Assembly: GCA_010093605.1 (NCBI GenBank)
Contig: MU004189.1
Coordinates: 1,557,834-1,621,833 of the forward strand
Direction of reading: 5' to 3'
Length of the DNA stretch: 64,000 nt
Source of the DNA: Lophium mytilinum
Lineage: Eukaryota
Part shown: one piece after another, positions 15,254-60,838 of the stretch
Numbering within the stretch: the stretch's first letter is position 1
Layout: each line of letters starts with the position of its first letter
The notes under the pieces: model-generated
Told to the model about the DNA's origin: nothing
Database searches by the model: none
The model's input: the letters and a program-made list of their open reading frames with translations, nothing else
Made by a program: the position numbers and the translations under genes

Positions 15254-16161
15254 CTCTACCATCTAAGACAGTGGAAAGGAAAGAAAAGCGGTCAGGATCT
15301 GTCGTGCACGTTTTCGGAAGTATTTGCCAGTGTGCTATAAATGTGTGATGCGGTGACAAAGAAGAAGTGACCAACGACTGTTTTTGGAGTAGAGTACCGT
15401 GCTGATTGATTATGGGACGATACATATGGGAGCCTGAGAGTAGTGCGCAGCAAGTTCTTTAGGGCGACATTAGGCACCTACTCTATGCGGTGCCCTCATA
15501 CGCTTTTAGGTGAAACTGCGGGAGGTTCCGTAGCTGGCACATGTCACACTGCAGACTCTAGGTATTCCAGACAACCCATACACATGTAGAGTGCACGCCG
15601 TAGAGCCGCCATTATTGTGAAGGGTGAATAGCAGGCTTGCAGAAAGTGCACCCGTGACAGCTCCGTTGCAGCCCGGCCCGCAGCTATCTCGGGCGTTGTC
15701 CAGTGCCACTTCCTGCGCCGCCACAGCCCACGAACGACACCACCAGCTGGAGAGTCAGTGCCAGGCAGAAACATCCCCGAAGCCTTCCCAGCTGACCAAT
15801 ATCCTCTTTCGAGCAGCCAGACCCGCCCTTCACCCTCTCATCGCCCGGCCCCTACCTGCAACCCAACCCTGGCCCCGTTGACTCCACCGCTCACCGTCCA
15901 CGCTGTCCACGAGCCGCGCCACAGCCGCACCCCTCCAACCCGTCTCGAGCGTCGCGCAGTCACAGCCTGGTCTCGTCATTCCGGCGAGGCGAGGCCCTCT
16001 TAAAGGTCACCACGCCTTCTCAGAGCAAGAAACGCAAAGCTTCCGACGTGCTTGAACCCGCCCAGCTTGTCGAGCGTCCCCGCAAGAAGGTCGATAGCGG
16101 AAACACCCCGAAGCCCACCACCACTCTTCCAGCTACCCCGGCCACGCTTGCATCTGCCAGT

Positions 16162-17940
16162 ATGGACTCTGACGACGAGTTCAACAGCTCCGCCTCCGGC
16201 AGCGAGGGGGACTTTATGGGCGACAACGATAGTGACGCCAGCTTTGGGGGTGGCGATGATGGTCAGTATTCCCCAAGTCTGTAGTGGTAGTGGTAGTAGG
16301 CATAGGCTGACATCTTCGGGATTAGACTCCGACCTGGACATGGAAGACAACGATATAGGCTTCGAGACCCAGGATAAGGACATCAAGAAGTCAAAGCAAA
16401 AGTACGAGGTCGACTTCCAGGTCTTTGGCCCTGAGCAGGTCCAGGCCCAGCAGGACAACCAAATCGAGGAGGTTGGCAATATCCTGGGACAGCCGCCAGA
16501 GGCAGCAGCTATCCTCCTACGGCACGCACGATGGAACAAGGAGCGACTGATCGAGTCGTACATGGACAATACGGAGAAGGTGCTGGAGAGTGCTGGTCTG
16601 GGCGAGGCTGCCTTGCACCCGCCCAAGATCGAGGTGGTGAAGGGATTCACTTGTGATATCTGCTGCGAGGACGGCCCTGGGCTGGAGACGTTTGCTATGA
16701 GGTGTGATCACCGCTTCTGCGTGGACTGCTACAAACACTACGTGGAGTCTAAGATTAAGGATGACGGCGAGGCGGCTCGGATCCGGTGCCCGGGAGACGG
16801 CTGCAACAGAATAGTGGACGCAGTGTCATTGGACTTTTTGGTGACGTCGGATAAGCTAAGGGACAGGCATGTGGCTTCACTCTTCCTGATTTGCACGTAC
16901 TAACCGCACGAAGATATCAGGAACTCCTCACTCGAACATACGTCGATGACAAGGACAACTTAAGGTGGTGCCCAGCCCCAGACTGCGAGAACACTGTCGA
17001 GTGCGGAGTCAAAGACAAGGACCTGCCGCGGATTGTACCAACTGTACACTGTGACTGCGGCCATTTCTTCTGCTTCGGCTGCTCCTTAAACGACCACCAA
17101 CCGGCGCCATGTGGTCTCGTTAAGAAGTGGCTGAAGAAGTGCGAGGACGACTCCGAAACTGCGAACTGGATATCCGCAAACACAAAGGAGTGCCCCAAGT
17201 GCCACTCCACCATCGAGAAGAACGGCGGCTGCAACCACATGACGTGCCGGAAGTGCCGCAACGAGTTCTGCTGGATGTGCATGGGCAACTGGGCCGAGCA
17301 CGGCACGAGCTGGTACAACTGCAACCGCTTCGAGGAGAAGAGCGGCTACGAAGCCCGGGACGCGCAGGCCAAATCGCGCCAGTCGCTGGAGCGCTACCTG
17401 CACTACTATAACCGCTACGCCAACCACGAGCAATCCGCCAAACTCGACAAAGACATCTTTCTCAAAACAGAGAAGAAGATGACGCAGCTGCAGATGCAGA
17501 CGGGCATGTCGTGGATCGAAGTGCAGTTCCTCGACTCAGCCTCACAGGCACTCCAACAATGCCGACAAACCCTCAAATGGACGTACGCCTTCGCGTACTA
17601 CCTCGCGCGCAACAACACGACGGAGATGTTCGAGGACAACCAGAAGGACCTGGAGATGGCGGTGGAGAACTTGAGCGAGATGTTTGAGAAGTCGACGGAT
17701 CAGCTGGAGAGCTTGAAGGTGGAGATGATGGATAAGACGAGTTATTGTAGCAAGCGGCGCATCATTCTGCTGAATGATACGGCGGAGAACCTGCGGAAAG
17801 GTGAGGGCCTTGTTGTGGATTTGTTTTGATTCGTCGAACCTTTTTTTCTTCTGTAAGGTTTGATTGGGTTTGATCATGATCATGAGACTGACTTTGATGG
17901 GATAGGGGACTGGGAGTTTAATGTTGCTCTTACTACATGA
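16162..17940 (+). CDS. Ariadne-family RBR E3 ubiquitin ligase (Hel1/ARIH1-like)
   Basis: Acidic N-terminus, UBA-like LLRHARWNKERLIE, RING1 (CDICC..CDHRFCVDC), IBR (WCPAPDC), RING2 (KECPKCHSTIEKNGGCNHMTC) and Ariadne domain. Introns at 16262-16325, 16867-16913 (GC-AG) and ~17801-17905. Confidence 0.95.
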
Positions 17941-20597: not shown

Positions 20598-23500
20598 ATG
20601 TCTTCGAAGAAGGGTCACGTTTTTGTAGCGCCTTCAGATCTCACACATCCGAAGTCCGTCTTCGAAGGCGGGTCGCCGCCATGGCCGATCACACAGGAGG
20701 GTTCCGCATTTCAAGCTCTCAAGGTTGTTGATACCGAGGTACTCTGCGAGATGTTGCGAGCACTAACACTGCATAGGCTGAACGAAACACACAAGGACTC
20801 GACGGTGACTACGTCGTTTTTGAGCTTCAGGAATTCAGAGTTTACCGTCCAGACTCTGGGCGTCTTGCGAATGAGTTGGAGCCATTGCAAGCCCTCAGAA
20901 CGGTACCCGGTCTTCACAAATTGCTTTTCGATGGCATACTAGTCTGTGGGAATGTGCGCCGATATGTGCAAGCGGTCGAGTTCGGAGTTCTGAGCAACGA
21001 GTGGAACCCAGATGTCGAGGCCCCAACCCTCAGCACTTATATTCAGTCCAACTTAGGCGAACAGTACGGCTTCTGGTACAAGTTGGGTGAACCAGCCTCG
21101 GAATACCGAAGATATCACAAACCGTATCTATGGATTGCCAGCTTTGGTTTACACGTTGTTGACTATCTATACGACCACAAAAGTGTTTGTTTGGATGATT
21201 TCAAGCAACATTTCCATGATTGGCTCCGCGAAAAACACCAGGTTGGCATCTCAGAATGGCTTGCGGAATATGGCAGAACAGATTTTAGGGTTGCAGTGTC
21301 AGCTTATGTGGAGTATCTCTATCATGAGAGCTGCTCCATCAAAGAGAGCTTCGGAAACAGGCCCATGTGGAAGGAAACTTTGCCTTGGGCGCTTGCAGCG
21401 GTGAAGGTTTGGGAAGCGAAGACATCCAAAACGATATGCTCACCGCACGTTTACGAATGCTTTCGGCGTTCTTACTTTGGGGACCAGCTGGAGCTGAGCG
21501 AGCCCGCTCCAGAAATTGCGGCTGTACAGGAAAAGAGAAAGAAAGAGCTTGGGTTCATGAAAGCTTCCACAGATCCGAAGGCAGAGAAGATATCAAATGG
21601 TGTCACCCCAAACGACTGGGAGCCGTCAAAAGGCGACGTGGTTGCTTTGAGCCGCGAAGCTAACTCACTGTGGAAGAAATCGAAGGCTGACATCTGGATG
21701 GCATACGTTCAAGAGACCCATCGCGACAAGAAAGGGGAGCTATTTCTCTCCATTGTATGGCTGTATGGACCGGAAGACACCACAATAGATATGGAGCATT
21801 ACCCATATCAGAACGAACGATTTTTCTCGGATCATTGCGAATGCAGTGGCCCGAAGCGACCAGCTAGCGACGTCCTGGACCGAGTTGATGTGTCGTGGTG
21901 TCCAAGTGTCATGCCTGCGAACGATCAAATCTTCGTGCGTACAAAATATTGTTCGCAAAACGAGTCGTTCGTTACGCTGGATATGACAGATCGGTCATGC
22001 TCATGCCAGAAGGAGTCTCGAACAGCTTTTGAGGGCATCGTGGAAACTAGAAAAGTTGGCGATACAGTTTATTTTCTGGAGAAGAAAGCGCAGTCACCAA
22101 CTGGACATGACACTCTGGAACCTGTTGTCATAGAGTCTTTTGATTACCTGGACCAGGCTGTTAGGATTCGTCGTCTGCTGCGCCGTGCAAGGGACTGCTC
22201 GACGCTTGAGATTCAGTCTTTCCAGAATATACGACCCAATGAGTTAGTATGGACAGAAGAGACCATGCTGGTTCGAGCAGACAGAATTGCCCACAGCTGC
22301 AACATTCGATTCCTTACTACCAAGGAAAATGTACCAAGTCCGTACAACCGCGACGGAGTTGCTGATTGTTGGTACATTCGTACTGCTCTCATATCAGACC
22401 AACTTCAAGCCTTCGAAGAAATCACATTCAAGCCAAACATGAGCGAAGGCTTTGAACGCACAGACTTGGAAGTGAAGCTTGTTGGCCTCAGCCTTTTCAG
22501 TGGAGGTGGGAGTTTTGACCGATCTTTGGAGGAGTGTGGAGCTGTAGACTTCGTGCTGGGAGTGGACATGTTTAGTGCTGCGATGCACACATGGAAAGCA
22601 AACCTTCGGGGGGGTCCCACTTCCGCTAGCACATACTGTGGATCTGTTGACGACTACTATCTGGCAATTCAACAAGGCGACCCAGACGTGTATCCCCATG
22701 CGAGGATTGGTCAGATAACCTTCATCTGCGGAGGTTCCCCTTGTCAAGGCTACGCCCGCATGAACCGGCACAAGTTATCCGAAGCGAGCAAGCGAAACTC
22801 CTCCCATATCACAACGTTTGCATCAAATGTCGATCTCTACAGTCCGTTATACGCTATCTTGGAGAATGTTCCTGAAGCAGCTGGTAGGATCAGTAAGGAC
22901 ATCCCGGACAACCCCTTTGCGCAACTGATTGCTTGTTTGGTATCAATGGGATACCAAGTTCAACAGTTCAAGCTTGATGCCTGGTCCCATTCTAGCTCGC
23001 AAAGTCGATCTCGCTTGTTTCTCTCAGTGGCGGCACCGGGTCTGAAACCCTTACCTCCGCCGACATCTACACATTCGCATCCGCCGACGAAGACGCGTGT
23101 GAATGCGATTGGGAAGCTGCCCAATGGCGAAGCCTTCGGAGAGCGAACAGTTGTGGTGACTCCATTTGCGTACACGACGAGTGAAGCGGCTTCTCAGGAT
23201 CTTCCTTCAATACAGGATTCGCGGGTTCAGACCTGTATCCCATATCCTGATCATATCAACTCCACTATTTCAAAATGGGCCGACAGAAGGCTGTTTTCCC
23301 TAATCCCAACCTATCCATATGGGCAGACCTACGTGACGACATTAAAGGAGATGGCCACGTTCAATGAAATGAGCAGGCTAAAGGAAACAGTCATGCCCCA
23401 GTTCTTTCTCGAGAAACAAATCCGACACACTGAAGAGTCAGGTGGGAAATCCTATGGACGAATACGACCGGATGGACTGTTTCCAACAATCGCAACCGTC

Positions 23501-24298
23501 TTAAATCCCAGATGTAAATATGTCGGCCAGGTCCTTCATTGGAGAGAACCAAGAGTGATGACAATACAAGAGGCGAGGCGTGCCCAGGGAATTCCGGATG
23601 ATGTTGTACTAATTGGAACTCTGGCTGAAAAGCTCAAGATAACTGGAAATGGAGTCGATTATTCCCTGGGTCTCACCTTGGGATACAGCTTGCGGCAGTC
23701 TGTCTCGCCCAACCAGAATTATCCCATTCCGTATAATAGGAGCGGCCACTCGGGACAAGAAGTCATCGCCGTCACTAAAGGGAGAGCGTTGATAAATTAC
23801 ACTACAGTTGAAGGTATTACAGGCTCGAGAACTTTCTTGAATGTCGAGAGTACCGAAACGACGGAGAGGTTCCGGAACCATACCCCGGGTCGGCCAGACA
23901 TCTCCAGGAAACAAGAGTCTCGGAAGAACAATCTGAATAACCTCAGCATGAACAAAATCCAGCGTGCGCTGTCCGAAGCTACCGAGGGCCAGAGGTTTTC
24001 AAAACATGAAAAGAAGGCTCATAGAAGCATTGATAGGAGCAGTAGGCATCGGGCTCTGCCAAATGCTGCGCCGGACCAAGAGCCGCGGAAACGAACTCGT
24101 CAGAACACTACCGGTACGGAGTTAGTAGCTCCAGCCGACTTTTCTAAAATCCCAGAAAAGTTGTCCAGGAAGAGCATTACTACAAATACTAGTACCACGA
24201 GCAATGACGAGGGCGATAGCGAGGATGAAGGCCCTTTCATGCCTAAACAATTATGGAAGAGGGTAACGAAGACGGATGGGGTCGGGAGCTTTGAGTGA
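20598..24298 (+). CDS. dim-2: DIM-2-type C5 cytosine DNA methyltransferase with BAH domains
   Basis: BAH-like regions (WLYGPEDT...YPYQNERFFSDHC; NELVWT) and MTase motifs I (LFSGGGSF), IV (GGSPCQG), VI (ENV), VIII (QSRSR), IX (EARRAQG) and X (GNGV). A short intron ending at 20776 links ATG 20598 to the main ORF; its donor is at 20724 or 20739 (uncertain). Confidence 0.88.
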
Positions 24299-28420: not shown

Positions 28421-31400
28421 AGTATCTATCCAAGCTTGACTGTTGGGGTGTTGCGTAGGGGCTACGTGGGTGTTGGACGCTCTTCGTCGGGTGGCGAGAA
28501 GTATAGATGGATGGTAATTCTTTGCAAGACCTGTTAGAGGCGTTCGTAAGTTTAAGTAGCTCTTTGGTGATGTCCGGATTGCTTCAGAATATTAGCTTGT
28601 CCACGATTGAATGTCGCTTCCTTTAAGCTACACGTCTAGCAGGCACATACAACTAAGAAAGCTTCAGTTTGATTATAAAGCTTCTAATTAAAAAGGTTTC
28701 AAGTCATCTCAAGCTATATTGACTGCTTGAATCAATCACTTCGCACGTGAGAGACTTGCCGACAAGACCTGGATTACCTCAACAGTTAGTTCATGACTTT
28801 CGAGAGTCAAGAGAAGCGCTTCTTGGCTCATTACTATTGTGACACCGTGGATAAGTATATTCACGAAACCCTCCAAGCTGAAATCGGAAGCTTGAGAAAA
28901 TAGGCGGCGGGAGGTTCAGAACCCCTATGTTGTGACGTGAAACACCCGGGATGTGGTTGAATCGTCAGTCTGCCGGGCGGTGTGGTTGTAAGCTCCAATA
29001 ACGGCAACTCACAACAACTAGGAAGTAAAGTTAATAGCCGTAATCTTAACGTTCCTAACGTATTTCCGCGCACGCACTAATACCCGCACTGGCCACCATA
29101 TTAAATCCGGCTGAGCCCCTTATTAGCCCCCTCTCCACGGGTATACGCGTTTAATATAACTTATTTCCAATATAGATAGTAGCTAGATATATAATTTAAA
29201 CGTGCCTAATTTAATGCACCCGCTTATTAGGCGCGAAAATTATAAAAAATAGGTATTTTTAGCCTTATTTTAAATAAAAATTACTCTAAATTATACTCTC
29301 TCCCTTCTATAGCCTACCTACCTCCTTTTCTACTACTTTGCAACGCTATATTAACTTATTCTAAACGCTAGGTATCTAGTATATACTTAAACTAGGTATT
29401 AGAATATTAAGATCTATATTAGAATAGAAAATTCTATTTATATAAGAAGCCTACTAAAATCTTACCTAGCGCGTTTTAAACGCGCTATTAAAGAAGATTT
29501 TAATATTCTACTATATAAGATTAAATGTTTAAGATGTTTCTAGAATATACTTTAGTACTTCTTAGCCCTTATTAGCACCCTATAAAGGGCCTAGTAGTCT
29601 TTATTAGTAATAAGTAGCTTAGTAAACCTTATAGCTAAATATTATACTATATAGTAATACTACACTATATAGTAATACTATATAATTATACTATATAGCT
29701 ATATAGTTTATCTATAATAAGTTACTTAGTAGATCTTATAGCTATATAGAAGTATATAGATTTAAATAGAGTTATATTTATTTATAATAATATCTAAGTA
29801 TTATTATTCTTATTATTATCCTCTATAACGTTCTACCCCTTCTTCTTAATATCTTAAGGTAAGGCTCTACCTATATTACGCCTAAATTTAGCTATAATTA
29901 CTTAAGGGGTTTATTTAATTCTCTAGTTTAAGCTATACCTATAGAGATACTTCTTATTAAAACTATTACTCTAATAGGCCCTTACTCTCTTTATATTCTT
30001 TTTATTAACCTTCTTTTGCCGGAGCTTAATAGTATTAAGAAGAGAAGACTATTTTAATAGTTTAGGCTTCTTCTTCTTCTTTAGTATAGTAGAATACTGC
30101 TTCTAGAATAAAAGGTTATTATTAAACTCTCTTCTTTTATCTATAAAAATCTATAAAAAATAAGCATTTATCTCTAATAAGAAGAGGGGGTATTTATTTC
30201 TAATAAGAATAAGAATACTTACTTTCTAATTACTATACTTCTACTTAAGTTTTATCTATATTAGATTTCCTTTATACTTCTATATATTAATCTAATACTT
30301 AAGTAGAATAGAAACTCCCTTAATTATTAGAAATACTTCTGCTCCTTAAGGTATTTTCTATCCGCCTTTAATCTTTATAATACCTAAAGTACTATTAATT
30401 AAGATAATAGGTAGTATAGAAACATTACTACTAATAAAAGTTACTATTCTATGCGGTATAATAATAGTTATCTCCTTCTTATCCTTCTCTAGCGTAGCCT
30501 TCTTCTTTCCCTTTATCTTAGGACGCTTTATTAGAGACGGCTAGTCCTAGTACTAGTAGTTAGTAGGAGAGGGGGGGCTTTTAACTTATTATTAATAAGT
30601 TAGAGACATAAAAGAAGGCTATAGCTAGTGCCGCTTAGAAAGGTTATAGATATAATAGTATATAAATAAGGCAGTAATACTACTACTAGCTAGAGGATAG
30701 TTCTCTAGTATTAATATAATTTAGCTTTACTCGCTAGGGCTAGAACGGGGGCTAAAAGAATCCTCTAGGCGTAAGGGTACCTGCGTTATATATAACTAGC
30801 CCTGCTATCTAAAAATAGGCTGCATTATATATAACTAGCCTACCCGCGGTACCTAGAATTAATTACTTTCTAGAGGCATTAGTTTCTACTATAGATTTAT
30901 TAGTAATAACTAAGGCTACTATAGATGCGTTATAGATAATTATATTAGTAGAGGCTACCTAATAGAAGAAATAGAGAGGGTATAGCTAGGTACTAGTAGT
31001 AGAGAGTTTATTATAGATAAAAAAGGTTTCTATATAGGTAGTAGAGTATATTCTTAAGATATAGTAAACTACTTATATAGTCTTAGATATACTACTTTTA
31101 CTACTACCTTACTTTCTTCTTAAATTTAAATTAAAGTCTTAAAGTTATAGAAGATATAGCTTTTAATCTATACTTCTAGCCTACTTATCTTAGCCATTAG
31201 CTAGAAGTTATTATCTAGAAAAGTATTATTTTAGGGGGGCTAATTAGCCTGCTACTTTAGCTATTCTTTAGCTAAACGCTCTTAAAGAGAAGCCTTTAAA
31301 ATAGCGCTCGCTTTTAAGGGTATACTAATTTATTTTAAATAAGTTAAAGAATAGGTAGTATATAGATAGGTAGTATATAAATAGATAGGCTAGTAGATAG

Positions 31401-33551
31401 GCTAATACTAGGGGTTTATAGATAATAAAGGGTGTAAAAAAGTATATAAAAAGAGGTCTTTATTAATAATAAGGTAGCTTATTCTAATTTAGACAACGGC
31501 TATTACTAAATATAAATAAGCCTAGCGTATACCTATATTAAATTATGCGTTAAAATCTACCCTTCTATCTACTTATTAATAATAAACCTATACTTATTAT
31601 TCTCTATACCTCTATAAAAAGCTAAAATAGCTAAGGCTAAGTCCTCGCCGCTGTAAACCCTAAAGAGCGCGTTAAAAATAAAGCCTAAGAGAGGGAAGAA
31701 AGCAGTTATTATAGATAAAGATAAGCTAGAGCAGCTTAAGAAGCTTATAGTAGCTATACCTAAGTCTATAGTAAAGTAAGTAACTTAAGAAGAAATACTT
31801 AATAATGCTAATAAGGAGGAGGGCGTTAGTAATAAAGGGGAGATTATAACTAAGATTATCCGCCAGAATACTAAGTTAGTAGTCCTTAGCTATTTAAATC
31901 CTAATTTATTAAAGTTAATTAATAAGCTATAGAGTAGAAAGCTTATAGAGAAAAATAAAGAGTACTAGCTTTATATAACTAAAGGGAGCCTTATATAAGG
32001 TACTATAAAAGCGTATTAAGGGTATATTCTAGATAAAGATATATCTTATTTATTTCTAATAAGTACTAGGTAGTAGGCTAAGTTTCTAAAATAGCTAAAG
32101 TTCTATAAGCTACAGGCCTATAAATATATTAATACCCTGGATAAATAGGCGCTAAACTATTTTATATAATAGATTTAAGGGATAGTTAAAATAAGAAAGG
32201 TAATAAAAGAAGACTTAGAGTAGAAAGCAGGTATAAAGTAAGGCTAAAAGAAGAAAGTAAAGCCTTATTCTAGATAAGCATCTACTACTACATCTATTAC
32301 TTTAGGCGCTATATCTATTACTTTAGGCGTTAGAGATAAAGATAAGAATATATAGAATTCTAGCACTTTATACTTCTATACCTAGAAGATAAGGGCTATA
32401 ATTAGCTAGCACTATTTATATTATTATTAATAAGAATCTAATCTTTAGGTAAGGCAGGCTAATAGTATATATACTAGAAATCTATTAGTATCCTATACTA
32501 TTTACTACGCAATAAAGTAGCTCTAGAGGGAGAAGGTATACTACTACTATCTATTAGCTTTATTTATTACTAATAATAGCCTAGGTTATAGCTAGAGAGG
32601 TACTAGAAAGCGCTTAAGCTATCTAAGAGTAAGATCTTTAAAAGATATATAAAGATACTAAGGCTTATTTTAAATAACTAGAGAAAGAAGATACCTCTTC
32701 TTTCTCTTATCTAAAGGATAAAGATAGAAGAGCACTCTAGGCAGGCTATAGGTAGAGAATAATAATACATCTAGCCTATGCTATTATATTTACCTACCTC
32801 TTATAACTTAAAGAGGTTCTTTAAATTAAGATAAGTAATATACGCGTTTTTAATAAAAATCCTAGGTCTATTAAGATTACTCTTTTTTTCCGGAAAACTT
32901 ATTAATATAGAGGTATACTACCCCCTTATTTCTAATAAACCTACTTATTATTAACGCATAAATAGAGGTAAAGCCATTTATTATCTATATATAATAGAAG
33001 AACCTATAGATTTCTATACCTAATCTACTACTTAAATAGCTTTATCTATTAGGTATTTACTCCGGCCGCCTATTCTAAAAGTTTAACCTATATAACTAGC
33101 CCGTTATTAATAAGAATAAGTTAATTATAGGTTCTCCTTTATTATAAACGCGCCTGCATCTTTATTAATAATAATAGTCCTCTTCTTAATTTATTTTTAA
33201 CTTTTAAAACAATCTTATAGATATTAGCTATAACCTAATTACTTTCTCTAGCTATTCCTTTTACTAAGGTAGCTGCTAGTAGCTATCTAGTAAGCGGCGC
33301 TAGAATATATAAAAGATCTATAATTAGAGTAGCTAGTTAGAGAACTTCTTATCTATAATAATTATAAAGTATCTTATTAGTTAGAATAATAGGCTAACTT
33401 ATAAGCAGCAGGACTTTATAAACCTAAACTTTTATTATAAATAAGTATACTATAGTTATAATAGAACGTGCAACTATATATAGCCTTATACCTTTATCTC
33501 TAATAAGTATAAGCTATACTTATTAGGGACGAAGGTACTATATAGCTAAAT

Positions 33552-33638
33552 TATAGCCTTTCTATATAGCCTCTCTATATAGCCTCTCTATATAGCCTCT
33601 CTATATAGCCTTTCTATATTATATATAGCCTTTCTATA
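33552..33638. repeat. 13-bp minisatellite (TATAGCCTYTCTA)n inside the RIP island
   Basis: About 5-6 consecutive copies are visible. Confidence 0.8.
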
Positions 33639-34414
33639 GTTCTACTTTATTTTAAATAAATATATAGAATAGGCTTAAGGCTTAAGTATTAGTACTAGTA
33701 GATTTTTAAGGCTTAAGTATTAGCGCTAGTATAATAGTATATAAGAGCGTTAGAAATAAAGGTATAAGACTATATTAACTTAGAAAGAAGGTAAAGAACT
33801 CTAGAAGTATTAAAAATAAGTAAAGAGCTATAGAAGCGTTTAAAACAAAGATATAAGACTATAAAAGAAAAGAAGATATAGAATTATAAGAAGAAAACGC
33901 CTAGAATTATAGCTATATTAGAAATAAAGGTATATAACTATAACTATACTAGAAGTAAAGGCATAGAACTATAACTATATTAAGAATAAAGATATAGTAC
34001 CTCTATAGCGTTCTTAACGTACTCTTATATACTATATTATATTACTAATCTTACTATACTTTCTAAGCGTTCTTAACGCACTATATTATATTACTAATCT
34101 TACTATACTCTCTAATAGTCCCCTAGTAATCTTCTATAGTCCTCTAGTAATCTTCTATAGTCTCTAAGTATTTCTAATATAATCTTATACCTTACTAATC
34201 TTACTAATCTAGCATACTCCCTAGTAGTCTCCTAGCATTCTTAACATTCTTAATATAATCTTCTATAGTCCCTAGTATTCTTAATATAATCTCCTATAGT
34301 CTTTTAATATTTCTAGCGTTTTTAATATAATCTTCTATAGTCTCTTAATATCCTATATAAATACTACAGTTATAAGGCTTATTATTAATAAATACTACTA
34401 TATTAACTTCCTTA

Positions 34415-35120
34415 GGCGCCTTATTTTAAACGCATACTCTCTATACTTAAGAGAGGGGAAAAGATTTAAACCTTATACTTACTTATTCTCTATAGTACTA
34501 TACTTATTTTAAATGCATACTATATATACTTTATAGAAGAAATAGATTTAAACCTTATACTTACTTATTCTCTATAGTGCTGCACTTATTTTAAACGCAT
34601 ACTGCATATACTTTATAGGGGGGATAGATTTAAACCTTATACTTACTTATTCTCTATAGTGCTGCACTTATTTATAATAAATACTACCTATACTTTATAG
34701 GGGGAATAAATCTAAACCTTATATTTACTTATTATTCTCTATATAGTTATACTTATTTATAATAAATGCTGCCTATGCTTTATAGGGGGGATAAATCTAA
34801 ACCTTATACTTACTTTTTATCCTCTATATAGTTATACTTATTTATAATAAATGCTGCCTATACTTTATAGGGGGGATAGATTTAAACCTTATACTTACTT
34901 ATTATCCTCTATATAGTTATACTTATTTATAATAAATACTACCTATACTTTATAGGGGGGATAGATCTAAACCTTATACTTACTTATTATTCTCTATATA
35001 GTTATACTTATTTATAATAAATACTGCCTATACTTTATAGGGGGGATAGATCTAAATCTTATACTTACTTATTATTCTCTATATAGTTATGCTTATTTAT
35101 AATAAATACTACCTATTTTA
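34415..35120. repeat. Tandem array of about 8 copies of an 82-85 bp unit inside the RIP island
   Basis: The anchor AAA-CCTTATA recurs at 34471, 34553, 34635, 34717, 34802, 34887, 34972 and 35057 (steps of 82,82,82,85,85,85,85). Confidence 0.9.
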
Positions 35121-35930
35121 TTCTTCTTCTCTATATAGTGCCGGTACTAGCACTATATAGAGAAGAATAAGGGCCTTATACTAATACTACTATTTAGACA
35201 GCGCGCTATTAATATATACTACGTATTTTAGTATATACTAGTAAAGAAGTATGCTCTCTAGAAGTTATAAGCCTAATTTCTAGAGTTAAGAGACTTATTT
35301 ATAATAAAGATTAGCCTTATAAGCTTCTTAGGTACTAGTATAGAAGTATACTCTCTAGAATTATAGTAGTTATAAGCCTATTTCTTAAAGTTAATAGGCT
35401 TATTTATAATAAGGATTAGCCTTATAAATATATTAGGTAGTATACTCTCCTAGAATAGCATTACTATATAATAGCTTTTAGTATTATACTACCTATTCTT
35501 ATACTAAAGCTTATACTAATACTAGAAATAGATAGAAAGATATACTCTATAATCTTATTACTAGCGGGGTATATAAAGTTATCTTCCGCTATCTTAGAGC
35601 TTTTCTTCTTTATTCTCTAACCTTCTATCTCTTAGGCTTATCTAGAATAACTTCTTTATTAGCTTTTATTACTCTTCTATTATTACTCTTTTATCTCTTT
35701 AGCTTATCTAGAACAACCTTCTCTTTACTAAAGCATCTCTTTAGCTTATTTAAAATAATCTATCTCTTTATAGCTTTATAAGCTTTATTAACCTTATCTA
35801 CTTTTTACTCTACTTATTAATAATAATACCTTCTAAGGCTATTCTATATTACTAGCGTATCGCTACCTATTACGCTAATATTCTAGCTAACCCTATAACT
35901 ATAGCTGCGCAGCAAGTATAAGTTCTTTAC

Positions 35931-35978
35931 CTTACCTTCTTACCTTCTTACCTTCTTACCTTCTTACCTTCTTACCTT
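35931..35978. repeat. 8-bp repeat (CTTACCTT)6
   Basis: Six direct copies read from the sequence. Confidence 0.85.
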
Positions 35979-37259
35979 TTTACCCTTCTTTAGCTTTATT
36001 TTTAATAATCTTCTAGGGCTATTACTTAGTATATAGCTTATTAAAACCGTATAAATAAGCTATAAAATACTATAGATATTAAGAAGCTCTATACTTATCT
36101 CTAGCGCTCTATAAATAGTATTTCTAAATACTAGAAATATTTTTATAAATATAAGCCTATACTAGGTATACCTTATAGTATAAATTAGCCTCTAGACTTA
36201 ACTACTATTCTAATTAGCCTTAATATAGAGGACCTTATACCTTATAGATGCGCCTAGCAGGAGGTAATAGTTAAAGAGTACCTTATTATAAAGAATATCT
36301 AGCCTTCTAACTCTCTTTCTAGCACCTCTAAGCTTCTAGTAAGGCTTTTTTTCTTTCTTTCCTCTTACTTTATCTCTAATAATCTTAGGTTATATCCTTC
36401 TATATTTATCTAGCATTCTTTAAACTACTAGATAGTATAATTAGTATCTTTTAAACTCTAGATACTATAAGTCTTCTCTTTCTTTCTTATTATTAATAAA
36501 GCTAATAAGATATAATAGCTAATTAATTATAATCTATATATTATAGAGATCTAGCTAGATATTATATAATATAGGCCTAATACTAATATTAATACTTCTA
36601 ATATCTAGCTACCTTATCTAGTATAAAGATAGCTAGTAGGTAATAATTAGATAATAGCCTCTATAGAATTAACTACAGTTTAAGCTTATCTTAAATAAAG
36701 GCCCCTATACTTTTAATTTCTTAATTTCTTAATTTTTCTTTTCTTATTTAAAATAAGAAGGCCTATAGGCATGCAGCTATACTCTAGAAGGTGCCTAATA
36801 TAATCTATTATATTAAAAATTAATAAAAATAACTTAATAAATATAATAAGAGATAGAATACTAAAATATAACTATAAGAAATAAAAGAAACTACTTATTT
36901 AAAATAAGGCCAAACTAATTAATTTCTAGCTAATTTTTAGGCCTTATATAATAGAAATTACCTTATAAAAGTATTATATATTACTTTTAAATAGTATTAA
37001 AGATTATTAGTAATATATTATAATTATTTAAAGCTTTCTAGTATATAGAAGAGTATTATTATAATTTTAGTAATAGTGGTGTTAACGTTTAATTTTAGTG
37101 GGGTGGCCCAAGCGTCAGCCCCCTGTTAGCGCGGATGGGAACGTCAAGTTGGCACAAGAAGTTGTTTTGGGGCTGTGAGGTAAGAGCGCGCTCCTTTTTG
37201 TCCTCACAGCTTCAACGCGTCGATGAGGGTATAACGGACGCTCCCTCTACACCATAACT

Positions 37260-51529: not shown

Positions 51530-53081
51530 CTATAGCCCATCATAGTCTCCAGCAGCCTCATCTTCATCAATATCGCCATCCTGGATCTCCTTGGCAAGTT
51601 CCCTTTCACGCTCCCTCGCCTCTTGCGCGTTCTTCAGCTCCAGACGGTGCTGGTTCATGGGGTATCTCATTGCCTTAACACACTCGTCGTGTAGCGACAA
51701 GCATGCGCGGATGCGATCATGGAAGGCTTCGCCGGGCTCGCGGGTGGCGTAGACGTCCCCAGCTTGCTTGGTCTGCATGTAGCCCTTCTCGTGGTCGATG
51801 GTGGCCTCTATAACGCCGTCGCGGATGGCCTTGGCAACAATGTATTCTGCCGACTCTTCGCTTTCAAGTCCAAGTCGGATGCAGATGTCGCGGAGCGAGA
51901 TTCGGGAGTAGGAAAGAGATAGCATGCGAATGCCAGTTTTGATGACGTTTTGGCGGAGACGGAGGATCAAGGTGTAGGTTCCGTCACGGTGGAAAACGGA
52001 AGAGTATGTCTGTACGACCTTCAGGAAGCCCTGGAGATCACCGACTCTGACGGCCTGGACGAGGCGGAAATACGGCTCTAGTGCGCGCTCGAGGTTGGGC
52101 TGGCTGAACACGGCGCGATCGGGAATATCACCCATAAGCAGCTCGACCACAATGAGCAGCTTAGTCGACGCCTGGTAGAAGCCTGTAGCCACGGCGTTGG
52201 TTGGCGATTTTCGGGTTGCGCTAATCAGATGTTCGTGCGCCTCCGTATATGCTAGCTGGATTGCTCGTATGCGTCCGAGGTAGAATAGGTACCGTGCAAC
52301 CTGGTTGTTGGGAGCAGTTGAGGGGAACTGGGTCTGTGCCACCAATAGATCGGCTTGTGTAATATCGGCGGTCGAGATATAGTTCCGTAGAAGGAGAGTC
52401 GTCACCGCAGCCTGAGTATCCTGGTCCTTGCGGAGCACTGAACTGCGCAACGCCGCGAGAAGCTTACCACGGATGGATATGACGGGCGATTGTTTGGATG
52501 GAGGCTTGGGATCCAGTTCCTCGTGAAATAGGGAGAAGTAGAAGTAAGACTTTGCGGCGAGGGAGTCGAGTGTTCTTCGGTTGAGTTCGCGGATCTTGTC
52601 TACGAGAGTCGAGGAGAATTCGGCGCCATCATCAAACTCCTTAGTATCATAGAGATAGACCTGTTCAACGTATCAGCTCCTGTTCTCAACAAGACCACTA
52701 AGAGGCACCTACCTGGATTAAGATGGCTATGTAGACATCAATCTCCGGGATAACCTCCTTCGGGTTCGCCTTCAGAATCGCCAGCTCTTCCTTGTATTGA
52801 GAAACAACACGACTTATCTCCTCTCCTTCTAGACCAGTTGCCTCGATCAAAATGCGGGCTGTGGGGTTACTCGGGAGGTAAGTCAACACAATGACAGAGC
52901 ATAGGATGCGGCCATCCAAGGTCTTCCGAATGGAAGATATCGACCGAAGAGCACGGAGGGTGAAACGGCTATCGAACTGAGCAACAGCGCGCTCTAAGAG
53001 AGCGAAGTTGCTGCGGATATCCTTGACAGGCTGATCGGGGTTGACGGCGGGTTGATCGACCTCCATGGTGTCGACTGCCAT
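51530..53081 (-). CDS. RPN3: 26S proteasome lid subunit Rpn3 (PCI domain)
   Basis: FDSRFTLRALR, NRRTLDSLAAK, RYLFYLGRIRAIQL, LRQNVIKTGIR, AKAIRDGVIEA and KAMRYP. One intron at ~52662-52711. Confidence 0.97.
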
Positions 53082-56521: not shown

Positions 56522-57420
56522 ATGGAGAATCCAGGTAAGCATCTCCTTTTTTCAGCTGTTTGAAGACCTATTAGTTTTAGAGTCTGCACGGGTTCTTGTT
56601 CAAGGCGCCTTTCCCAAGCGCAGCTTTCATTCAATCTTATGGTCTTTCATGCTTACATTCGCTTGCTACAGTCGATGAGATCTCCGGTGTCATCCACAGC
56701 CTCACTCAAGACCCGACGCCACAGCAGATGGACACGATAGAAACCTACTTTACACCCGATGCTACCTTTACCCATCCCTTCTGTCGTACCCTCGCTAGCG
56801 ATTCGAAGACTCAGATCACTTATATCTACCGCTGGTATAAAATCATGAGCCCCAACATCGACATTACAATCAAATCTGTTGGTACGTTGCCTGTCTAATT
56901 GCCTCAGCCACACGAATCCCTTAGGAAGTAGTCCATGCGGCTCCTGATACGTGCCTATCAGGTCTCTTCATCATGCATTTCATCACGTGATCTCCATACT
57001 TTACGATATCCTGGCCAGAATGGCAGTCATTGATTCTCTAACTGTATCCCAGCCTTCGACAAACAGAACCTGACTCTCTACGTCTCTATGTCACAAGTCT
57101 TCAAGCTGTTCATCGTCCCATTCTACAAAGCTCCAGTTTCTCTCGTTACAGTCCTACAGCTCGAGCGCCGCGACAAGAAATACTACATCGCCAGCCAGAA
57201 TGACCTATATCAGACCGATGAATTCGTCAAGTTCGTGGCACCATGGGGAGGCGCTTCCCTAGTGCGACTATGGCAATTAGTAGCCACACCATTTTGCGTG
57301 CTTGGTGTGTGGCTTCTTTGGCCGTTGGGTGTATTATTCGACCTTGTCGTACGGCCAGAAGGCACGCAGAAAGTTGTCGGAGCGAGGGGAGAAGTAAAGG
57401 AGCTAGGGAACAAGGACTAA
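56522..57420 (+). CDS. Fungal NTF2-like (SigF-like) domain protein
   Basis: MENP|VDEISGVIHSLTQ..IETYFTPDATFTHPFC..YRWYKIMSP..|FD...YYIASQNDLYQ. Two introns. Confidence 0.8.
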
Positions 57421-58156: not shown

Positions 58157-60232
58157 ATGTGCATAGTCAGTGTAACCGAAGCCGCATCCTGCGGCCACCC
58201 CGTCGAAGAGGAAAACCAACTTTGCGGCAAAGCCCGCCGCAATTACAACCAGGAATGCGTCCCGTCCACTCGCATTATCGAAGGTAGGGTCCCTGGCCTC
58301 TGTCGCGGCTGCCGCGAAGCAGACATGGACCGCCGTGACATGGCCGACACAGCTCGCGTGACCGAGGCCTCACGTCGCGCTGCTGCTGCCAAGGAAGATG
58401 AACGCCTCCGCTCTACTCTGGAGGCATCACGCCGCCAGGCGCCCGAACGGTGGGAGGCCAACCTGCAATCGGTCCTCGAACGCTCCAAGCGCGAAGCGCC
58501 CCCAGCAGGCTGGGACAGCGACATCGATGCTGTGCTCGCTGCTTCCCGTGCAGACTTCGAGGCCCAGGAGGCAGCACGGGAGGCGCAGGAGGTTGAGATG
58601 CTGTTGGCGGCGTCGATGAGGGACTGGTCAGAGCAAATTGCACGTGCGCCGAAGGAGTACTACCGCTTCAATGTGAAGTTTTCGTGCGGGCATAAGGTCG
58701 ATATGGGGCAATCGAAGATCGAGAGGCAGCCGGGTGCGCAGGGGCCGGGTTACTTCGAGCAGGATGACCCGTTTGAATGTCCAGACTGTCAGGGTCGGGG
58801 AGGGTCGAGTATGGGGCCGGCGGTGAGGTGGGAGGCGCTGAGTCGACCGAGGCCGGAGAAGAAAAGAGAGGAGAGCGGAAGTGTGACGAGCGGTCAGGCA
58901 CCGGTAGGCAAGAGTCAGGCACCGGTAGGCAAGAGTCAGACGCCGATAACGAAGAGTCAAACAACGAGCTATATGGACGAGTTCGAGGACTTAGCGCCAG
59001 GGACAAAGGGGAAAGGGAGAAGGGACGAGGCGAGTGTGGCGAGGAGTGAGAGTCCGGCAGCAGTAACGGTATCGACATCTTCGAGAGTCGGAGGGTTGAC
59101 AAAGCAGATGGAGAAGATGGGTATTGAGAAACTGAAGCCGTTGGAGCATATCTTACCTTCAGCTGAGCAGATGCGCCAGAAACGTCTTGCTCACCTCGGC
59201 ACAATGCCAAAGACCTCAAGTCGGACAGGACAGCCTACTCCTCAGAGTACTACAGCTGCCTCCACATGTGGCCAAAATACTTCCCAAGCGCAAAGCTCTT
59301 CTTCCGGGCGTAAAGACTCCCAGTCCCAGATAGGCCTAGCAAGCCCGAAACCCCAGGCAGGTGCTGCAAGCCTTAAGACTACAGCAAGCCCCGGAAGCCA
59401 GCTGAATCTGGCGTTCAAAAAATCCGCGGAGACAAAAGCACCGGAGCCAGTATTGCCTCCCACAGAGAAGATGCGGCAGCAACGTCTCGCCCACCTGAGC
59501 GCATCGCAGCAACCATCCACATCGAAGAGAGGTACGCCTTCGCGAACTGAAGGTGCTTCCTCCGTGCGTGGCCCCACTGTTCCTCGACAGCAGGACACTA
59601 CTTCGGTACATGGGCAGCCTAGCTCACAGGTCGGCACTTCAGGTTCAAGCACTGTACTGGGGAGCCCTCGTAGTCAGCTGAGTCCAACAACTAAGAGACC
59701 CGCGGACGCAAAGAAAGCTGTCGAAGTAAAGAAGCCCATGGAGATCAAAAAAGAAGCGCGGCCTTTCTTGACTCCTGCAGAGAAGATGCGCCAGCAGCAT
59801 CTTGCGAATCTACGTGGATTGCAGCATGCTACTAGCGAGAGAGGGGAGTCTGCTTCACGAGCTGGAGGGTCTTCTTTGATGCGTGACGATAGCGCCTCAC
59901 AACGAAGTGACTCCGCTTCTTTGCGTGGGCAGCCTGACCCGCAGGTACGTACGGTGGGCCCGAGGACTGTAGTGGACTCTCAGGGTCTGCAAAGCCCGAC
60001 AGCCAAAAGACCTACAGAAATGAAGGGACCCGTCGCGGCCACGAGACCTGTGCAAGACAAGCCCGCAGTGCCCAAGCTTGGAGCAGTCAGTCAAGTTGCA
60101 GACAATCGAAGTACCGTAGGCAAGGCTCTGGAGCCAGTGGAAGAAGCTGAGGAGGAGAAAGACTCGGAATCTGAACCTGAGCCGGAAGACCCTGACTATG
60201 TCCGTCAGCAGCGCCTGGCGCGCTTCAAGTAG
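58157..60232 (+). CDS. Orphan 691-aa protein with Cys/His motifs, UIM-like repeats and four (E/D)xxRQxRLAx(L/F) repeats
   Basis: Single long intronless ORF with a good ATG. Internal repeats are visible in the translation. Confidence 0.8.
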   Translation: MCIVSVTEAASCGHPVEEENQLCGKARRNYNQECVPSTRIIEGRVPGLCRGCREADMDRRDMADTARVTEASRRAAAAKEDERLRSTLEASRRQAPERWEANLQSVLERSKREAPPAGWDSDIDAVLAASRADFEAQEAAREAQEVEMLLAASMRDWSEQIARAPKEYYRFNVKFSCGHKVDMGQSKIERQPGAQGPGYFEQDDPFECPDCQGRGGSSMGPAVRWEALSRPRPEKKREESGSVTSGQAPVGKSQAPVGKSQTPITKSQTTSYMDEFEDLAPGTKGKGRRDEASVARSESPAAVTVSTSSRVGGLTKQMEKMGIEKLKPLEHILPSAEQMRQKRLAHLGTMPKTSSRTGQPTPQSTTAASTCGQNTSQAQSSSSGRKDSQSQIGLASPKPQAGAASLKTTASPGSQLNLAFKKSAETKAPEPVLPPTEKMRQQRLAHLSASQQPSTSKRGTPSRTEGASSVRGPTVPRQQDTTSVHGQPSSQVGTSGSSTVLGSPRSQLSPTTKRPADAKKAVEVKKPMEIKKEARPFLTPAEKMRQQHLANLRGLQHATSERGESASRAGGSSLMRDDSASQRSDSASLRGQPDPQVRTVGPRTVVDSQGLQSPTAKRPTEMKGPVAATRPVQDKPAVPKLGAVSQVADNRSTVGKALEPVEEAEEEKDSESEPEPEDPDYVRQQRLARFK

Positions 60233-60838
60233 ATTATGGAGTAGAGTTGAAGGGGATGACAGGTAAGTTGGGAACCTAGCTGCTGGAATGGGCTAGTAGA
60301 TTTAATTCTGATTTGAGAAGATAATTGAGCAATGGAAGTTGAGAAAAACAGCTTTGATGTGAGCCTGATTTGAAGCCTGACGGACCTTGCGCTATACTGA
60401 TACTTTTACGATGTATTGGAGGACTTCAGACAGTACCAGGTAGGAAAGAGCGCAAAAATAGAGCTCAGATGCCAGCATGATATATGGCATGCAAAACTCG
60501 TATGTACATACATTGCAGCTTTTTAAATGCCCCGCTCAGGTTCTTCCTGAGCATTCTTTGACCAGACTCTGCCTTCTTTAAAGAACAAAATATCTTGCCG
60601 AGTTCTTCCCATCCCAGCTGTGAAAGTTAAATGCCTGCCTAGGTGGAGGTGCAATTTAATGAGCTAAAAACAGACGACTCTCATCCCAATCAGGAAGGTC
60701 GCTTTGACGCGTTTGCACGTGCGCCAATTGTGCCGCATCCCCTACCTTTGTAAGTACCTCACGCCCTCGCTGTTGATGGCAACCCTCTAAGGGTCATTTG
60801 CGGAGTCTCATCTTCGAGCTACTTGACTCATTGGGAAA

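Follow-up and report, generated by a model that had tools for sequence, protein, structure and literature searches.

A candidate motif-based ubiquitin-to-Cdc48 adaptor in Lophium mytilinum and its small fungal family

Cdc48/p97 is guided to many substrates by cofactors, most of the known ones being globular UBX/UBA proteins or enzymes. The gene described here, from the fungus Lophium mytilinum (GenBank assembly GCA_010093605.1), may encode a cofactor built differently. It lies at 58157..60232 on the forward strand of a 64,000-nucleotide stretch of contig MU004189.1 (positions 1,557,834 to 1,621,833), hereafter "the window", to which all coordinates refer. Its 691-residue product (labelled P0001) carries helices resembling ubiquitin-interacting motifs (UIMs) in its N-terminal third and, in a long tail, short basic helices resembling VCP-binding motifs (VBMs). 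An earlier reading of the letters alone (the original prediction) had presented it as an orphan protein that pairs both kinds of motifs and lacks a catalytic domain.

Ataxin-3 displays tandem UIM helices together with an Arg/Lys-rich VBM in its disordered C-terminal part (PMC5559722), a pairing that the original prediction had invoked correctly. The window protein resembles it in both respects. It lacks, however, the Josephin deubiquitinase domain of ataxin-3 or any other Pfam catalytic domain, and possesses four VBM-like copies in place of one, two CxH…CxxC modules, and a motif core rich in Gln and not in Arg. RHBDL4 also bears a C-terminal UIM beside its VBM, for which a complex formed with the N-domain of p97 is available (PDB ID: 5EPP), and the RLxRF end of its RRhRLxRF motif matches the end of RQQRLARF in the window protein (PMC5389986, PMC5559722). 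In contrast, RHBDL4 is a seven-helix rhomboid protease of the endoplasmic reticulum membrane, whereas the window protein matches neither the rhomboid nor another Pfam family, and Arg positions of RHBDL4 are occupied by Gln in the window motif.

Ube4b/Ufd2 and Hrd1 likewise possess, at one of their extreme termini, a short VBM helix, which binds the cleft of the p97 N-domain (PMC5559722). They are E3/E4 enzymes with a U-box or a RING, domains that Pfam does not detect in the window protein. The UBA-UBX adaptors p47/Shp1, FAF1, and UBXD7 are closer in principle, being non-catalytic and joining a ubiquitin-binding element to an element for the p97 N-domain (PMC5559722). Their UBA and UBX domains are globular, however, and share no Pfam homology with the window protein, in which linear helical motifs are predicted instead. 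Finally, the non-enzymatic ZFAND2B/AIRAPL combines AN1 zinc fingers, a VCP-interacting motif (Rx5AAx2R), and tandem UIMs. The window protein is similar to it in having small zinc modules, UIMs, and a linear p97-binding helix, all of them putative here, and differs from it by the VBM-like type of its motif and by the lack of an AN1 match. It belongs to none of the ataxin-3, RHBDL4, or ZFAND2B families: the Josephin, rhomboid, AN1, UBA, and UBX domains are all missing from it, and Pfam searches up to an E-value of 10 return no family at all. No known catalytic domain is thus detected by Pfam, as had been predicted.

The reading proposed here is that of a motif-based, non-enzymatic adaptor linking ubiquitin to Cdc48. 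It is plausible but unproven, and we hold it tentatively, as possible rather than probable. The gene product would be soluble. Two CxH…CxxC modules, holding zinc, would bracket ~110 residues of helix, within which four to five UIM-type motifs would bind ubiquitin by avidity, the likeliest ligands being chains or multiply ubiquitylated clients. The C-terminal two thirds would be disordered save for four basic amphipathic helices, all short and following Ψ-R-x-x-R/H-L-A-x-[L/F], that act as VBMs and dock in the interlobe cleft of the Cdc48 N domain. The primary Cdc48 site would be VRQQRLARF, invariant and C-terminal, while the three internal copies would raise the avidity by engaging further N domains of the same hexamer, the protein as a whole bringing Cdc48 to ubiquitylated clients. 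The intact gene, its family, and the conservation of its motifs are shown here, the motif helices are predicted, and the published consensus forms fit in part; the adaptor role, like the binding of zinc, ubiquitin, and Cdc48, is inferred.

The coding sequence is a single exon (58157..60232, forward strand) with an ATG start, 691 codons without any internal stop, and a final stop codon. Its product is collinear from start to end with an uncharacterised 669-residue protein of Mytilinidion resinicola (P0002), from the initial Met-Cys to the final RFK, with 73-76% identity. The coding status rests on this intact reading frame and its conservation. Of the words sampled from the locus, 90% occur in sequencing run X1, and its contigs exhibit eight GT..AG intron joints within neighbouring genes, indicating that spliced RNA is present in the run. 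The X1 contig over 58271-60195 is unbroken and devoid of joints, which is consistent with a single-exon gene; these contigs are strandless and do not distinguish a sense from an antisense origin.

The protein is not an orphan, a label that proved too strong. When 1.84 billion representative proteins are scanned in full with phmmer, 12 reach E <= 0.001, including P0003 (671 residues, 36-50% identical to the window protein) and ten distant matches with E-values from 1e-8 to 6e-4. With a profile built on the second Cys/His module (module 2, see below), 13 of the 8000 word-sharing candidates that were scored reach E <= 0.01, two of them being newly added fragments, which brings the family to ~15 sequences. 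A profile of the full-length family alignment, again with 8000 scored candidates, returns two rows, both already in the query alignment; low-complexity words of the tail are suspected of having filled its candidate set. The three members with a species name (Mytilinidion resinicola, Lepidopterella palustris, and Patellaria atrata) all belong to the Dothideomycetes. By its sequences, this is a small, fast-diverging, lineage-restricted family without a Pfam model. Its members share a common plan: a CxH…CxxC module, two to five UIM helices, a second CxH…CxxC module, a KGKG motif, and a disordered tail.

VBMs are α-helices inserted in the Nn/Nc cleft of p97; their consensus is EhRRRRLxhh, the form found in RHBDL4 is RRhRLxRF, and the RF pair mimics the FPR loop of UBX domains (PMC5389986). 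They are also described as ΨRXXRXXR, with three important Arg residues and hydrophobic contacts, and are located mostly at extreme termini (PMC5559722). Four related segments are found in the tail of the window protein, all encoded on the forward strand: helix 1 (residues 333-348, 59153..59200, LPSAEQMRQKRLAHLG), a conserved internal copy; helix 2 (residues 433-448, 59453..59500, LPPTEKMRQQRLAHLS), a lineage-specific duplicate; helix 3 (residues 538-553, 59768..59815, LTPAEKMRQQHLANLR), a further such duplicate, in which the second Arg is replaced by His; and helix 4 (residues 680-691, 60194..60229, DYVRQQRLARFK), which forms the C-terminus. The motifs EQMRQKRLAHL, EKMRQQRLAHL, EKMRQQHLANL, and the terminal DYVRQQRLARFK start at residues 337, 437, 542, and 680, the internal three being spaced by 100 and 105 residues. 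The RQQRL-type motifs are therefore present where the original prediction had placed them, three at ~100-residue spacing and one at the end. The tail holds four matches to the pattern R..[RH]LA.[LF], whereas 5000 shuffled versions of it give a mean of 0.000. No other match occurs in the 26,209 residues of all six-frame open reading frames (ORFs) of at least 100 codons in the window, so that the tail motifs do not result from chance.

Conservation and structure prediction both single out these segments. Identity to P0003 amounts to 88% in motif 1 and 83% in the terminal motif, compared with 23-28% in their flanks, and the terminal motif is 100% identical to P0002. In the full-length AlphaFold 2 (AF2) model, 396 of the 691 residues have a predicted local distance difference test score (pLDDT) below 50, and the only helices of the tail (336-348, 435-449, 540-555, and 679-690) coincide with the four motifs. 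Computed over blocks of 10 residues, pLDDT reaches 72/69, 69/67, 86, and 90 for motifs 1 to 4, compared with 30-46 in their surroundings. Such predicted helical islands in a disordered tail are the usual signature of motifs that fold on binding, and four short helices, the fourth lying at the C-terminus, agree with the single short helix of a VBM. The terminal V-R-Q-Q-R-L-A-R follows ΨRXXRXXR in full, as do P0003, P0007, and P0009, and its RLARF matches the RLxRF of the RHBDL4 form, at the C-terminal position. The motif is found in five of the nine tail-bearing members (P0001, P0002, P0003, P0007, and P0012) and in the C-terminal fragment P0009, which ends in DPDWVRKQRLARFK; in P0007 (IRQQRVQRF) and P0012 (LRQQRVHAF), it occupies the same alignment columns as motif 1. 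On these grounds, binding of Cdc48 by at least the terminal motif is nearly an even call. Compared with PDB sequences, the terminal 34 residues find no match at E-values up to 10. The 24 residues around motif 1 find 11 rows, all of them apolipoprotein A-I helices (E 0.24-1.4), which are read as chance matches.

The ubiquitin side of the proposal concerns the helical region between the two Cys/His modules (residues 57-163, 58325..58645, forward strand), where five UIM-like helices have their core Ser at S72, S91, S110, S130, and S153. This Ser, an acidic flank on the N-terminal side, and hydrophobic residues three and seven positions ahead of the Ser make up the UIM consensus, in which a conserved Ala four residues before the Ser contacts Ile44 of ubiquitin. 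Four helices fit the pattern [LIVM]xx.[LIVM]xxS, namely LRSTLEAS (residue 84), LQSVLERS (103), IDAVLAAS (123), and VEMLLAAS (146), each with one to three acidic residues among the five preceding positions. Such matches average 0.089 in shuffles of residues 57-165 and none of 5000 shuffles reached four, so that the four observed are not due to chance. Of the five repeats announced by the original prediction, these four stand; the first (TARVTEAS, residues 65-72) is degenerate here, although clean in homologues at the same alignment position. The AF2 model of residues 1-240 places helices at 50-93, 97-112, and 119-163 with pLDDT of ~75-96. S91 is invariant in the 12 rows of the family alignment and S153 is conserved in at least 90% of them.

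More distant members exhibit textbook UIMs at the same alignment positions, such as DDLERAIQES, QELEAALQAS, DELEKAMQAS, and EELQAALKAS. P0004 passes the Pfam UIM model (PF02809, gathering score 21 bits) with 22.7 bits over residues 123-138, a helix that aligns with the fifth helix of the window protein (VEMLLAASMRD) and that itself has Val at the hallmark Ala position, and P0008 remains just under the cut-off with 19.4 bits. Over the 36 pattern matches in the family, the Ala position is filled by Ala in 10, Val in eight, Ile in seven, and other residues in 11, all 10 Ala-bearing matches lying outside the clade of P0001 and P0002. From these comparisons, we conclude that the helices are homologous to UIMs and have become degenerate in the clade of the window protein. 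That they bind ubiquitin is likely, though by no means assured.

The two Cys/His modules flank this helical region, with their residues placed as the original prediction had stated. Module 1 (residues 1-56, 58157..58324, forward strand) possesses C2, C12-G-H14, C23, C34, and C49xxC52, its Cys being conserved in the family alignment, where the pattern reads M-C-x9-C-x-H-x8-C-x10-C-x14-C-x-x-C. The Met-Cys start is found in seven of the N-terminally complete proteins, and the gene call of P0003 adds a 50-residue extension ahead of the same Met-Cys. Module 2 (residues 164-216, 58646..58804, forward strand) reads YYRF..KFxC177-G-H179 ... IER ... DDP.EC208-P-D-C211-xG in the window protein and PKxYYxxxxxFxC-G-H-E-x-D-x-G-x-T-x-I-E-R-D…PYLxxDD…C-P-D-C-x-G in the family. 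No other part of the family is as well conserved, identity reaching 74% between P0001 and P0003, and C177, C208, and C211 are each conserved in at least 90% of the 12 rows. In P0008, Cys replaces His in both CxH knuckles, and the His is therefore read as a metal ligand rather than a catalytic residue. Each module would thus form a putative Cys3His (or Cys4) metal site, three further conserved Cys being present in module 1, and the metal would be zinc.

The AF2 model of residues 1-240, computed with the 12-row alignment, has a mean pLDDT of 82.6 and a predicted template modelling score of 0.34. It displays three strands in module 1 (3-9, 15-21, and 38-45), whose CxxC knuckle lies where the first long helix begins, and three in module 2 (167-175, 180-190, and 199-204). 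When both modules are compared with hhalign, the CxH and CxxC fall in register, weakly (probability 26.8%, P 6.8e-4), and an origin by internal duplication is possible. Fold-match searches, which barely covered module 2, return no match to known folds, and a new fold is not claimed. The structure rows of the ESM Atlas are small clusters of Ascomycota hypothetical proteins, with template modelling (TM) scores of at most 0.29 for residues 1-240; for module 2, TM scores reach 0.52-0.60 over 39-43 residues only, which makes them leads and not matches, and the feature search of the same resource gives no usable match. Prediction of a complex of residues 1-58, residues 160-218, and two zinc ions, run without controls or family alignments, gives a score of 0.00 and a mark of 0.34, which speaks neither for nor against packing of the two modules. 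Lacking a Pfam family or a fold match, these paired CxH…CxxC modules count as a small, uncharacterised domain of their own.

Several observations weigh against the adaptor reading, starting with the tail. The three internal motifs are not independent, since each of them heads one unit of a ~100-residue tandem repeat, as detected by pairwise alignment against shuffles (z = 19.6 for units 2 and 3, 9.2 for units 1 and 2, and 5.4 for units 1 and 3). P0003 has neither motif 2 nor motif 3 (6% and 12% identity), and P0002 from Mytilinidion has both; by this comparison they represent a recent expansion in common with that fungus only. All four motifs of the original prediction exist, but its conserved core was overstated: conservation in homologues holds for motif 1 and the terminal motif, both kept in P0003, and fails for the two recent duplicates. 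Four of the nine tail-bearing members (P0004, P0005, P0008, and P0013) are devoid of the motif. Furthermore, the internal copies follow ΨRxxRxxR in part only (M-R-Q-K-R-L-A-H, M-R-Q-Q-R-L-A-H, and M-R-Q-Q-H-L-A-N): the third Arg is replaced by His or Asn, and in copy 3 the second is His as well. The form EhRRRRLxhh is not reproduced by any of the four copies, in which the two central Arg are QK or QQ; the first Arg is kept in all, the fourth in all except copy 3, and the Leu, the variable position, and the hydrophobic end are present. Sequence and fold searches link no part of the protein to a solved p97 cofactor. At the RNA level, the strandless contig over the ORF stops exactly at an antisense intron acceptor (see below), and for both reasons it is not counted as proof of a sense mRNA.

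The partial match to the VBM consensus, with two of the four Arg of EhRRRRLxhh, leaves room for a ubiquitin-binding scaffold whose basic helices would have another partner, such as a MIT domain of Vps4 or another protein (through a motif similar to the MIT-interacting motif MIM1), importin, calmodulin, or a nucleic acid. The UIM-like helices, the conservation, and the predicted tail helices are equally compatible with it, and the net charge of +24 over residues 333-662 would suit nucleic-acid or importin binding. The MIM1 pattern is (D/E)xxLxxRLxxL(K/R), and the terminal D-Y-V-R-Q-Q-R-L-A-R-F-K agrees with it at five of six positions. The position that differs is the first Leu, which is Arg in the four window copies as well as in P0003, P0007, P0009, and P0012, and this Arg is exactly what a VBM requires. 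MIM1 motifs are, like the terminal motif, C-terminal helices, and are described as leucine-rich (PMC7240154). The spacing of Arg at i, i+3, and i+6 and the terminal RF nevertheless fit a VBM better than any of the alternatives named, and a scaffold with another partner is regarded as rather unlikely.

On the ubiquitin side, the UIM model PF02809, searched at E-values up to 10, finds no match in the whole window protein, in five fragments of 23-25 residues, or in the 106-residue helical region, so the Pfam check of the UIMs came out negative for this protein; 10 of the 12 homologues also lack a match. The hallmark Ala is replaced by T87, V106, V126, and L149. An alternative is a protein unrelated to the ubiquitin system, with zinc fingers and a disordered region, such as a regulator that binds nucleic acids or forms condensates, its helices forming a coiled coil or hairpin between the zinc modules and their likeness to UIMs and VBMs being convergent and functionless. 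The textbook UIMs of distant members, with an acidic flank followed by L-x-x-A-Φ-x-x-S at the same positions and with one example passing the Pfam cut-off, speak against such convergence. The number of helices varies from two to five among members while the UIM pattern is kept throughout, which argues for independent binding motifs and not for a fixed structural coiled coil. A function outside the ubiquitin system is accordingly judged unlikely.

The C-terminal parts of the distant members differ from that of the window protein. P0004, P0005, P0007, P0012, and P0013 carry P-x-Y-[AG]-T-[VI]-D-[DN]-L after a conserved acidic run, and in P0004, P0005, and P0012 a basic R-[IVA]-E-R-L-R helix is located close to the C-terminus. 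At the corresponding place, the window protein has P-D-Y and then VRQQRLARFK. The segment P-x-Y-[AG]-T-[VI] fits the core [W/F/Y]xx[L/I/V] of an Atg8-interacting motif or LC3-interacting region (AIM/LIR). Since the distant P-x-Y-[AG]-T-[VI]-D sits where the clade of the window protein has P-D-Y and a VBM-like helix, an exchangeable output motif is suggested. A far-reaching extension of the adaptor reading, which we consider very unlikely, would make this protein the first non-enzymatic cofactor built purely on UIMs and VBMs and the first with a tandem VBM array, its hitherto undescribed pair of zinc modules presenting the UIM array and its output motif being swapped between Cdc48 and autophagy. 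On a single flexible tail, as many as four VBM helices would then grip several N domains of a single hexamer. The ubiquitin-binding head would remain constant and the tail would carry RQQRLxRF in the clade of the window protein, P-x-Y-A-T-V in distant members, or both in some, yielding a modular ubiquitin receptor that routes clients to Cdc48 or to autophagy. In the open-access literature, as far as its texts were available, neither a fungal non-enzymatic cofactor with UIM and VBM nor a tandem array of VBM-like helices was found described, which for the former is no proof of absence in print.

The AIM/LIR-like ends of these five distant members could also belong to an autophagy adaptor, but the core is missing in the window protein, where Y681-V-R-Q ends with Gln, and such cores are very common by chance. 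That the UIM-like helices would bind the UIM-docking site of Atg8, instead of or besides ubiquitin, and send clients or Cdc48 to autophagy is highly improbable, since UIM-like sequences have been reported at this site without structural support for their binding, according to a review (PMC7615515).

If the ubiquitin-to-Cdc48 adaptor reading is true, a complete adaptor can be assembled from linear motifs and multiplied by motif duplication, of which the three ~100-residue repeat units would be a visible example. It would represent a lineage-specific Cdc48 cofactor added in the Dothideomycetes, a class that includes many plant pathogens, and would provide a test of the divergence, from RRRR to RQQR, that the VBM consensus tolerates with binding kept. 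If the motifs do not bind, what is left is a fast-evolving fungal protein without an assigned function. The architecture is suggestive and open to direct tests; its significance is limited in that both bindings are deduced, the motifs of this protein deviate from the consensus, and only a few, little-studied fungi have the family.

Besides these motifs, the tail harbors other features, all on the forward strand. A 21-bp tandem DNA repeat encoding GKSQAPV-type units (approximately residues 246-271, 58893..58967) is reported by Tandem Repeats Finder with 3.6 copies and 83% matches, and P0002 has fewer copies of it. It is followed by the motif 'DLxPxxKGKGxR' (residues 276-290, 58982..59026), in which G285 and G287 are conserved in at least 90% of the 12 rows and which is 80% identical to P0003, compared with 37-43% in its flanks. 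We know of no match for this motif. In distant members, it is preceded by D-D-L-I-D-L, which we take to resemble a SUMO-interaction motif. A SHP box, h(x)1-2 F/W (x)0-1 GxGxxL (PMC5389986), was considered and rejected for the KGKG motif: PGTKGKGRRD (residues 281-290) contains GxG, but neither a preceding aromatic residue nor a following Leu.

An acidic Ser/Glu/Pro patch with a net charge of -9 (residues 663-679, 60143..60193), 100% identical to P0002 and 76% to P0003, separates the strongly basic part of the tail from the terminal motif, which it directly precedes. The tail (residues 236-691; 58862-60229) also contains 13 SQ/TQ dipeptides against 8.2 expected, a number reached by 3.6% of shuffles, and P0002 and P0003 have a similar content, which points weakly to a phosphorylation cluster of the Mec1/Tel1 type.

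The 3' end of the gene is overlapped, outside the protein function discussed above, by a canonical intron of an antisense transcript (60196..60511, reverse strand), documented by the X1 joint 60195/60512. This joint has CT..AC ends and, read on the minus strand, a GTATGT donor and an AG acceptor. The spliced antisense transcript reaches the last 37 nucleotides of the ORF and is cut exactly at codon 680, ahead of the terminal motif. Its upstream exon lies inside the 600-bp gap that precedes the gene of an ABC transporter, a gap that may be a bidirectional promoter.

The window is fungal nuclear DNA. This transporter, of the ABCC type, is the downstream neighbour, and the upstream one (56596-57420, forward strand) is an intron-split SigF-type NTF2-like gene (PF24840) with the alternative X1 joints 56880/56961 and 56880/57052. 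Other genes encode Sua5, eIF2B-epsilon, a DEAH helicase, an ARIH1-like RBR ubiquitin ligase (16052-17829, forward strand; UBA-like, RING, IBR, and Ariadne domains over two intron-split ORFs), and the proteasome lid subunit Rpn3 (51530-52450, reverse strand); no functional linkage of the latter two to the candidate adaptor is claimed. A block at ~29000-37000 is AT-rich, with a GC content of 0.28 against 0.52 on both sides, a TpA/ApT ratio of 1.69, and a (CpA+TpG)/(ApC+GpT) ratio of 0.19, which is a strong signature of the repeat-induced point mutation type. About 5 kb upstream of this block, a 1140-residue ORF (20876-24298) carries BAH and C-5 cytosine methylase domains.

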